From Escherichia phage slur01: a stretch of 61,235 nt of DNA. Each line of letters begins with the position of its first letter. The first letter of the stretch is position 1. Positions 43,789 to 44,496 of this stretch are shown in pieces. The stretch lies in sequence record NC_028831.1, one strand, 5' to 3'. The position numbers were made by a program, and so were the translations under genes. Below the pieces are notes generated by a model. The model made no database searches. It saw nothing but the letters and a program-made list of their open reading frames with translations, and had not been told where the DNA came from.

Positions 43789-44496
43789 ATGTCTGACATG
43801 ACTCTTTTACCTACTAATCTCGGTGGCGACGGTTTCGGTGGTGAAGCTGGTGCGGCTGGTATCGGTGGCGCGATCGGTGGCTTAATTGGTTCCTGGATCG
43901 GTAATGGTTGGGGCGGCAATGGTGGTTGGGGTGGTCGCGGTAACTTCGCTGGTCCGGTGGAAGTGCAAGCTTCTGTTGACACCAACGCAATTCTGCAAGC
44001 TATCAACAACGGTACTCTTCAGACCATTCAGGGGCAGAACGGTACTAACCTGACTGTTGAGCGCTCCGCTGCTTCTACCTATAACGGTATTACTCAGCAG
44101 AACACTCAGAACCTACTGGCTTCCGTTCAGGGCTTTGCTGGTCTGAACACGCAAATCCAGGGCGGCACCAGCCAAGTGCTTGCGGCTCTGTGTAGCAACG
44201 AAGCGGCTAACATTACCCGTTCTTTCCAGGCTCAGTTAGAAGCTCAGAAGTGTTGCTGCGAAACCAACCTGAACATCGAGCGTCAAGCAGAAGCTACTCG
44301 TGCTCTCCTGCGCGATCAGCACGCACAAGCGCAAGCTGTTCTGATCTGTGACCTGAAGTCCCAGTTGCAGGAAGCTCGCTTTGCAAACTCTCAGTTGGCG
44401 CAGACGGCTGGCCTTACCTGTAAAATCAATCAGGTTGAGCAGTTAGTTAACTTTAAACTGCCAACTCCTCCGACTCCTCCGACTGGCTGCTGCTAA
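43789..44496 (+). CDS. Gly-rich/Cys-rich protein of unknown function
   Basis: ATG after TGGAG; N-terminal GGDGFGGEAGAAGIGGAIGGLIGSWIGNGWGGNGGWGGRG, C-terminal KCCCE...PTPPTPPTGCC. Confidence 0.5.
   Translation: MSDMTLLPTNLGGDGFGGEAGAAGIGGAIGGLIGSWIGNGWGGNGGWGGRGNFAGPVEVQASVDTNAILQAINNGTLQTIQGQNGTNLTVERSAASTYNGITQQNTQNLLASVQGFAGLNTQIQGGTSQVLAALCSNEAANITRSFQAQLEAQKCCCETNLNIERQAEATRALLRDQHAQAQAVLICDLKSQLQEARFANSQLAQTAGLTCKINQVEQLVNFKLPTPPTPPTGCC

Follow-up and report, generated by a model that had tools for sequence, protein, structure and literature searches.

A glycine-zipper protein with a predicted hendecad rod leads a conserved and apparently mobile gene cassette in Escherichia phage slur01 and related phages

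The DNA analysed here is a 61,235-nucleotide stretch from Escherichia phage slur01 (sequence record NC_028831.1), hereafter the window. It belongs to Seuratvirus (Queuovirinae) and is CAjan/SLUR76-like. Downstream of the lateral tail fibre gene, at positions 43789 to 44496, is an open reading frame (ORF) for a protein of 235 amino acids (aa), which we identified as a member of phrog_9288, a family already catalogued with its function given as unknown. The region is 94-99% identical to the corresponding regions of CAjan, the SLUR phages and SeppeHuegi. This gene leads a conserved and apparently mobile cassette of four genes and is probably not a component of the tail fibre. The gene and the signals around it, all on the plus strand, are as follows.

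43635-43654, plus strand: Rho-independent terminator of the lateral tail fibre gene, AGCGCGTC-ttcg-GGCGCGCT, then TTTTT
43678-43693, plus strand: tandem TTACA-N6-TTACA motif, upstream of the promoter-like site
43703-43730, plus strand: sigma-70-like promoter candidate, with a -35 TTGTAA (43703-43708), a 16-nucleotide (nt) spacer and a -10 TATGCT (43725-43730)
43738-43753, plus strand: hairpin GTAACC-agtt-GGTTAC, an exact palindrome, -7.3 kcal/mol, z-score -2.98
43777-43780, plus strand: strong ribosome-binding site GGAG, 8 nt ahead of the ATG
43789-44496, plus strand: coding sequence (CDS) of the 235-aa glycine-zipper/predicted hendecad-rod protein (phrog_9288), with the ATG at 43789 and a stop codon that ends at 44496
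44519-44553, plus strand: terminator-like G+C hairpin with UUUU, between the gene and the remainder of the cassette, centroid -15.6 kcal/mol, z-score only -0.3

Translation of 43789-44496 bears out the compositional features that an earlier sequence-only reading of this DNA had described, namely a Gly-rich N-terminus, a CCC motif and a PTPPTPPTGCC end. The protein starts with MSDMTLLPTNLGGDGFGGEAGAAGIGGAIGGLIGSWIGNGWGGNGGWGGRG, has the CCC at residues 155-157, and includes 32 Gly, 28 Ala, 25 Gln, 20 Asn, 20 Thr and 8 Cys. It matches phrog_9288 from end to end (E 4e-130), and we detected 169 homologues in a single-sequence search and 1173 in a profile search. The ratio of nonsynonymous to synonymous substitution rates (dN/dS) is 0.03-0.21 against eight homologues, and constraint is similar in the Gly-rich part and in the remainder of the protein. 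The ORF is a genuine gene, well beyond a chance ORF. Every source labels the gene "hypothetical protein", and the distant homologues likewise are all named hypothetical. Scans of the 235-aa protein against Pfam, NCBIfam and PADLOC gave nothing meaningful, and an alignment-wide Pfam scan of the homologues gave scattered sub-threshold noise. Pfam Gly-zipper_Omp matched two of 32 family members, below threshold (E 0.029). Publications on phages 9g, P400 and Korf and on BASEL held nothing relevant to the gene.

Two other ORFs at this site were considered and rejected. A longer version of the gene, with a TTG start from 43660, is unsupported because the conserved N-terminus MSDMTL(L/I)P begins at 43789 in all lineages. 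An antisense, Pro-rich ORF of 92 aa (43731-44009, minus strand) is not a gene; it is the reverse-complement image of the GGN glycine codons.

The sequence-only reading had also noted that the gene has its own ribosome-binding site and follows a terminator. We found both, together with the promoter-like site and the hairpin downstream of it. The terminator has an 8-bp stem with six G-C pairs and a T-run (-14.1 kcal/mol, z-score -2.69), and the annotation of phage SA80RD places a terminator at the same site. The promoter candidate, which was read from the sequence, agrees with eight of 12 consensus positions and falls under the threshold of the scanner. A -10-like hexamer lies 4-7 nt ahead of the hairpin in every enterobacterial-phage lineage examined, and the copies in Sasha, P400 and the PY100-like phages require a promoter of their own because their flanking genes are on the opposite strand. 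Comparable tandem (C/T)TTACA pairs occur upstream of the homologues in pSf-1, JenP2, L006 and L036. A regulon marked by this tandem was considered and dropped, as the motif occurs once only in the window.

The hairpin is present at the same relative site in 13 of 13 lineages, with stems that differ between them (in other lineages GTAACA/TGTTGC, TGTAGC/GCTACA, GTGGC/GCCAC, GCGAAC/GTTCGC, TGTAGTC/GACTACA and TGCCGCT/AGCGGTG); the combined shuffle p is 1.7e-9 over lineages that are not fully independent. Its five inner stem positions are paired in all 13 lineages, with two to four pair types per position. We also considered GTAACC-N4-GGTTAC as an operator; covariation of the stems from lineage to lineage, and the occurrence of the site only once in the window, led us to prefer an RNA hairpin. 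We read it as a stem-loop that begins the predicted mRNA, where it would be a putative stabiliser of the message. In E. coli mRNA decay, 5′-end structure of the kind found in ompA-type leaders stabilises the message.

Codon usage points in the same direction as these signals. The frequency of optimal codons (Fop) of the gene is 0.77, the highest among the 20 window genes tested, and its G+C content at third codon positions (GC3) is 0.51. For comparison, Fop is 0.74 in the major capsid protein, 0.50 in the neighbouring fibre and 0.50-0.55 in the cassette partners. The hairpin behind the gene at 44519-44553 was not called by the terminator scanner because its T-run is short; SA80RD and Sasha have a terminator annotated at the equivalent site, and the hairpin probably gives partial termination. 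The simplest picture suggested by these signals is a stable, mostly monocistronic and very highly translated mRNA, with some read-through to the three partner genes.

The protein itself can be divided as follows, again on the plus strand.

43789-43956, plus strand: residues 1-56, comprising an acidic N-tail (MSDMTLLPT), a glycine zipper and a Gly/Trp-rich stretch, dN/dS 0.1-0.2
43957-44457, plus strand: residues 57-223, a continuous alpha-helix predicted by AlphaFold2 (AF2), about 167 residues and about 25 nm long if fully extended
44251-44259, plus strand: CCC motif, Cys155-157, near-invariant in the family
44458-44496, plus strand: residues 224-235, KLPTPPTPPTGCC, and the stop codon, a Pro/Thr-rich tail with a two-Cys cap

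The best-conserved N-terminal feature of the family is MSDMTL(L/I)P(T), residues 1-9. Further on, the glycine zipper G26xxxG30xxxG34xxxG38 lies within GIGGAIGGLIGSWIG (residues 20-50 region) and is succeeded by Gly/Trp repeats. With at least three Gly at i, i+4 and i+8 in a hydrophobic stretch, the segment belongs to the glycine-zipper class, which is defined by a motif and is not a homologous family. The best 19-residue window of the N-terminus has a Hessa free energy (dG) of +4.5 kcal/mol, and the segment is therefore not a Sec-type transmembrane (TM) helix. The Wimley-White interface sum of the segment is -6.1 kcal/mol, which beats that of the influenza HA2 fusion peptide under the same scoring, and by this estimate the zipper should partition into the membrane interface. 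In relatives from Firmicute phages a true hydrophobic core replaces the zipper, for example WWVLIILFALIF (dG +1.9 to -0.1) or IWVILLFILLA. The flank on the N-terminal side of the segment has a charge of 0 to -7 in 44 of the 47 family members scanned. By the positive-inside rule, such an acidic or neutral flank favours an N-out/C-in or a monotopic arrangement. We detected no signal peptide in the 235-aa protein, and its C-terminal Pro/Thr-Cys tail is without a hydrophobic segment.

Structure prediction, one of the checks proposed in the sequence-only reading, gave an AF2 monomer model in which residues 1-56 are disordered (predicted local distance difference test, pLDDT, <50) and residues 57-223 form a single helix, with pLDDT 84-92 at residues 141-200. 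Heptad coiled-coil analysis of the 235-aa protein alone gave no signal, and this led us to a hendecad analysis. The mean spectrum of hydrophobic periodicity over 35 family members peaks at 3.66 residues (power 4.5, versus 0.63 at 3.5), in agreement with the 11/3 = 3.67 periodicity along a long helix that characterises hendecads, and in some relatives QGF(A/S)GLNTxVx recurs as literal 11-residue repeats. Residues 57-223 are thus predicted to be a hendecad rod. The CCC motif was found in nearly all family members scanned. In a 32-sequence alignment the positions conserved at 90% or above include CCC (155-157), R171, G34 and G42. The C-termini of the relatives are S/T/P-rich tails, some of which finish in GCC, CCG or CGC.

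The only solved structure matched by the family profile is influenza HA2, over the fusion peptide and helix A (E 2.8e-4, 24 bits), where GAIAGFIEGGW..GW.G aligns to profile positions 23-106. Both proteins join a Gly/aromatic interfacial peptide to a long helix. However, the repeat is a hendecad here and not a heptad, and the phage protein has no C-terminal TM anchor, no proteolytic activation site and no envelope to belong to. The match is marginal and probably reflects compositional convergence, so that HA2 is at most an analogy. ATP synthase subunit b offers another likeness, as it has a short N-out anchor and then a long hendecad helix that pairs in a right-handed manner. There is no sequence similarity between the two, subunit b has neither a CCC nor a Pro/Thr-Cys tail, the anchor of the phage protein would be a glycine zipper, not hydrophobic enough for a Sec-type TM helix, and the context is unrelated. 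Subunit b and HA2, together with the i-spanin Rz and the moron protein gp15, which are considered below, are its nearest analogues in architecture, and the 235-aa protein is a member of none of their families.

The gene is accompanied by three partners and, in some phages, by a fifth gene, which are listed here with the terminator that closes the unit.

44568-44936, plus strand: cassette gene 2, 122 aa, phrog_9157, with a His-rich N-terminus and a C-terminal half that is weakly MazG/PRA-PH-like
44952-45482, plus strand: cassette gene 3, 176 aa, phrog_8329, with a beta-rich domain and a disordered tail
45469-45753, plus strand: cassette gene 4, 94 aa, phrog_7239, with no family match
45765-45968, plus strand: optional fifth gene, 67 aa, phrog_25697, Cys-rich (MCGNTNRCCLGSP...CNCK..., five Cys)
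45975-45997, no strand assigned: bidirectional terminator closing the cassette, also annotated in SA80RD and Seurat

The order of the first four genes, all on the same strand, is conserved in more than 30 loci. The resemblance of the 122-aa partner to PRA-PH is sub-threshold (E 0.016, 16 bits, with a cut-off of 21.3), and BASEL records label this protein a "putative pyrophosphatase". Its His-rich stretch, GEHHHEHEKEEYKHAHSYARDHEH, precedes the weakly MazG-like half. Together with the CCC and CC motifs of the 235-aa protein, this stretch hints at metal binding within the cassette. Sequence and profile searches of the PDB with the products of 44568-44936 and 44952-45482 gave no match, and inspection of the partner sequences showed no signal peptide or TM segment. 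Among the loci examined, the 67-aa fifth gene is found in those of Seuratvirus and in Sasha (42% identity).

The position of the cassette differs between phages. It directly follows a fibre gene with a Peptidase_S74 end in Seuratvirus, Nonagvirus, Hanrivervirus, Klebsiella phage KLB26 and Hafnia phage yong3. In Salmonella phage Sasha it lies between the terminase region and genes on the opposite strand, away from the fibre, and the copy in Yersinia phage P400 is oriented divergently from the head genes. The neighbours in vB_YenM_12 and PY100 are small genes on the opposite strand, beside dam and ssb; in PY100 it is 27 kb from the fibre genes, where a separate fibre assembly protein is annotated. 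A distant 72-kb contig (L012) retains the first three cassette genes. Remoter relatives of the gene come from Firmicute-type phages, SPbeta-like ones among them, and from a Clostridiales genome. Three of the Firmicute-type loci (L007, 7093-9229; L010, 7214-9358; L016, 9128-11131) have a conserved pair of genes upstream, for a protein of about 170 aa and a Q/M/N-rich one of about 80 aa, and a Cys-rich protein of about 130-140 aa downstream (e.g., MSCNCEKCC...ELCC). A PHROG scan of the neighbours of the Firmicute-type homologues returned no functions, and hhalign comparison with the 44952-45482 family matched only L012. From this distribution, the cassette appears to be a self-contained, horizontally mobile four-gene unit. 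It resembles morons (lambda lom and bor, HK97 gp15) in being an autonomous promoter-to-terminator unit that is found at module boundaries, mobile and dispensable, with a lead product that is probably membrane-associated. It differs from them in that it occurs in virulent phages, has four genes, bears expression signals at the level of the capsid gene and consists entirely of families without an assigned function.

Upstream of the cassette in the window is the gene whose terminator opens the list above.

40519-43617, plus strand: lateral tail fibre, 1032 aa, with a phage_tail_N domain and, at the C-terminus, a Peptidase_S74 intramolecular chaperone

With a GC3 of 0.30, this fibre gene departs from typical codon usage, as would be expected if it were often exchanged horizontally. 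Between the gene for a J-like tip protein and the fibre gene we also observed a gene for a 77-aa lipoprotein (40215-40448, minus strand) with the lipobox LTAC. It matches phrog_12984 "lipoprotein" and is called an "apparent moron" in the Seurat annotation; it is probably a receptor-blocking exclusion protein of the Cor/Llp type.

In about one third of the sequenced Queuovirinae the gene is affected by deletions, fusions or an amber codon; in about 25 further records from this group it is intact. Viable isolates show at least nine independent lesions, including the following.

Seurat: residue 548 of the fibre is joined to residue ~114 of the 176-aa protein
SHIN8: the N-terminus of the fibre is joined to residue ~164 of the 235-aa protein
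GottfriedDienst: the gene is missing
WildeMaa: residues 1-90 remain
VogelGryff: residues 1-182 remain and the other cassette genes are lost
FritzHoffmann: the first 30-45 codons remain
ChristophMerian: all but the first 30-45 codons are lost
KurtStettler (bas22_0024; L001, 3127-4659): residues 19-235 continue a truncated S74 domain in the same reading frame
SeppeHuegi (Switzerland; L002, 3604-4311) and Skure (Denmark; L055, 891-1598): an identical CAG-to-TAG amber mutation at codon 83 (window 44035-44037)

The amber codon caused annotators to split the gene into two CDSs in both SeppeHuegi and Skure. A Gln-to-amber change is of the type that is suppressed by supE (glnV44) laboratory strains. 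The KurtStettler chimera is a small fibre protein in which S74 is truncated after ...LLVQVCRE; it is unique among the 296 records with a match and is annotated as a "putative lateral tail fiber chaperone". We also noted that related phages have a hot spot for deletions in the region from the fibre gene to the cassette. We considered the fusions in KurtStettler and SHIN8 as evidence for a role in the fibre, and they are better explained as scars of illegitimate recombination at this hot spot. All seven of the BASEL Queuovirinae (Bas19-Bas25; L001, L002 and L050-L054) have a lesion in the gene or the cassette, each of them different, a pattern which suggests that the way these phages were isolated either selected against the gene or relaxed selection on it. 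In T5-like Epseptimavirus genomes (about 80 records; for example Salmonella phage polluks, L006, 4794-5480) the tail operon ends in a decaying copy of the gene with several in-frame stops. This pseudogene comes right after the gene for a 661-aa hypothetical protein with a Peptidase_S74-like end, and none of the three partner genes accompanies it. Warwickvirus relatives lack the cassette, and so do vB_EcoS-95 and swan01. Purifying selection on the gene is strong over long distances, yet the gene is easily lost on laboratory hosts.

Our preferred interpretation, which we advance tentatively, is that the gene encodes an abundant accessory rod protein that is conditionally useful and acts at the cell envelope. 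The hendecad helix would mediate oligomerisation of the rods, with the Cys cluster lying where the subunits meet, and the N-terminus would tether them to the cytoplasmic membrane of the infected cell in a monotopic or N-out/C-in arrangement. The rod and the three signal-less partner proteins would then lie in the cytoplasm. There the protein may alter a property of the envelope that is important on natural hosts and not on E. coli K-12; entry of other phages (exclusion), membrane integrity and lysis timing are candidates, among which we do not choose. Production on a large scale would be costly, and the gene would therefore be lost quickly when it is not needed. That the four genes together make up a new envelope-acting system is possible but doubtful. 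The family phrog_9288 was already catalogued; the new elements are the cassette, the module for expression, the anatomy with its hendecads and CCC, and the census of lesions.

Several points weigh against this interpretation. Membrane tethering, oligomerisation and function are all deduced from sequence features, and the estimate of membrane association in particular comes from a crude summing of hydrophobicities. The protein could be soluble, as the segment of the enterobacterial versions is not predicted to be TM. The AF2 monomer model is of modest confidence (mean pLDDT 66), and the placement of the hairpin at the 5′ end is derived from its spacing to the -10-like hexamer. The eight Cys, among them the CC that closes the protein behind a Pro-rich stretch, would be more at home in a virion or an oxidising compartment than in the cytoplasm, and the late-type placement and capsid-level codon bias are equally expected of a structural decoration protein. 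A literature search turned up no paper describing the gene. Some probability also falls to explanations beyond those set out in this text.

The most serious alternative is a dispensable virion appendage, which we consider unlikely, though clearly less so than the remaining ones. The protein would be a trimeric rod on the capsid, neck or tail, comparable to the whiskers formed by T4 fibritin or the head fibres of phi29, docked through its conserved N-terminus and cross-linked by its Cys after release from the cell. Codon bias at the level of the capsid gene fits a high-copy structural protein, a long single predicted helix is typical of fibrous oligomers, and the composition is rich in Q, N, T and A with few charges. 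The Pro-rich tail followed by CC recalls the interchain disulfide knots of collagen III. In most lineages the gene comes after tail genes or beside head or terminase genes, dispensability is normal for decoration proteins and is shared with fibritin in the laboratory, and in KurtStettler the protein replaces, in frame, the terminal coiled coil of the trimeric S74 chaperone domain. However, the relatives from Firmicute phages have 12-13 consecutive hydrophobic residues at the corresponding site, which is unusual for an external virion protein, and the gene is always found with three genes that do not look structural, in the PY100-like phages among small genes on the opposite strand. No similarity to solved fibre, whisker or decoration proteins was found, and fibritin differs in having heptads plus a foldon in place of the hydrophobic zipper and hendecads. 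The two virion proteomes that we found (vB_EcoS-95 and swan01) come from relatives without the cassette. ORF29 of PY100 is annotated as hypothetical despite a published PY100 virion proteome, which is weak evidence against a place in the virion.

It is quite unlikely that the protein is an assembly factor or chaperone of the lateral tail fibre, aiding its trimerisation or attachment. This is close to the proposal of the sequence-only reading, which took the gene from its position to be a fibre accessory or receptor-binding component. The gene is directly downstream of an S74-ended fibre gene in the five phage groups from Seuratvirus to Hafnia phage yong3, as Tfa/gp38 genes are downstream of theirs, and deletions often take out the fibre and the gene together. 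Helical coiled-coil fibre chaperones are known (T4 gp57A is all-helical, as is fibritin), and the label given to the KurtStettler fusion by the BASEL annotators agrees with such a role. But the constant company of the gene is the cassette and not the fibre, from which it is separated in Sasha, P400, vB_YenM_12 and PY100. The adjacent fibre carries its own S74 intramolecular chaperone, and PY100 has its annotated fibre assembly protein. The gene has been lost while a full-size fibre gene (annotated or aligned) was kept in SeppeHuegi, Skure, WildeMaa, VogelGryff, FritzHoffmann and ChristophMerian. Phage fibres are present in few copies per virion, and expression signals at the level of the capsid gene exceed what a partner of such a protein would need. 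The sequence-only reading had named clear homology to a standard fibre assembly protein as the result that would overturn it; no match to a tail-fibre-assembly family was found in Pfam, PHROG or NCBIfam, and there is no homology to Tfa/gp38, gp57A or fibritin.

A bacteriocin-like toxin, freed at lysis and inserting its zipper into the membranes of neighbouring cells, is slightly less probable again. Gly-rich zipper N-termini are known from pore-forming toxins, class II microcins and the translocation domains of colicins, which share with the 235-aa protein a GxxxGxxxGxxxG pattern with Ile, Leu or Trp and the absence of a Sec signal. Without a signal peptide the protein would be released through lysis, as colicins are, and both its very high apparent expression and its favourable partitioning to the interface would suit a toxin. 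The resemblance to secreted toxins or microcin-like peptides suggested by the sequence-only reading therefore stands in so far as the Gly-rich N-terminus, with its GxxxG pattern, looks membrane-active. Membership of the microcins does not stand. Class II microcins are below about 10 kDa and have a leader of 15-30 aa with GG or GA at its end. At 235 aa the protein is far above microcin size and is dominated by its rod, and we recognised no double-glycine leader in it: MSDMTLLPTNL precedes the first GG (residues 12-13), and T9 (-4) and T5 (-8) do not fit the hydrophobic/acidic leader consensus. We found no immunity gene, exporter or C39 peptidase in the cassette or nearby; the protein itself lacks a domain for receptor binding or cytotoxicity and is not homologous to colicins or microcins. 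Constraint is similar on the zipper and on the rod, unlike the pattern of a leader plus a toxin, and the benefit of a toxin to a virulent phage is not obvious.

The least probable alternative, a spanin-, holin- or antiholin-like lysis protein, would account for the N-terminal membrane segment followed by a long helix of periplasmic scale with cysteines, as in the i-spanin Rz with its intermolecular disulfides, for the Firmicute-type loci, where the gene is placed where lysis genes often follow fibre genes, and for the L018 copy, which precedes small genes upstream of the terminase, but we consider it highly improbable, given an apparently complete and canonical lysis cassette elsewhere in the window, a flank that is acidic and not basic, lacking the positive N-in charge and the hydrophobicity of spanin and holin TM domains, no lipoprotein ORF embedded in or adjoining the gene, and the dispensability of the gene in many plaque-forming isolates. 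The lysis genes are as follows.

20214-20882: endolysin, by position and size against the Pharokka annotation of SHIN8
20919-21263: holin, on the same basis
21244-21883, plus strand: overlapping pair of an Rz-like protein (158 aa) and an Rz1/LysC-like protein (101 aa), matching phrog_89, phrog_456 and Pfam LysC

If the preferred reading of an abundant envelope-acting rod protein is correct, a gene that is routinely labelled hypothetical would rank with the most strongly expressed ones in a widespread group of phages of E. coli and Salmonella. The gene has been drawn into the tail-fibre locus or named a fibre chaperone by some depositors, and a role as a fibre accessory should not be inferred from position alone. 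The promoter, 5′ hairpin and optimised codons would together form a compact natural module for high expression. Public collections already hold natural knock-outs (the seven BASEL Queuovirinae) beside intact relatives (CAjan and the SLUR phages), so that no engineering is needed for a comparison of phenotypes. The contrast between purifying selection and loss in the laboratory points to a function that is missed by plaque assays on K-12, and such a function would bear on host range and on the choice of phages for therapy.

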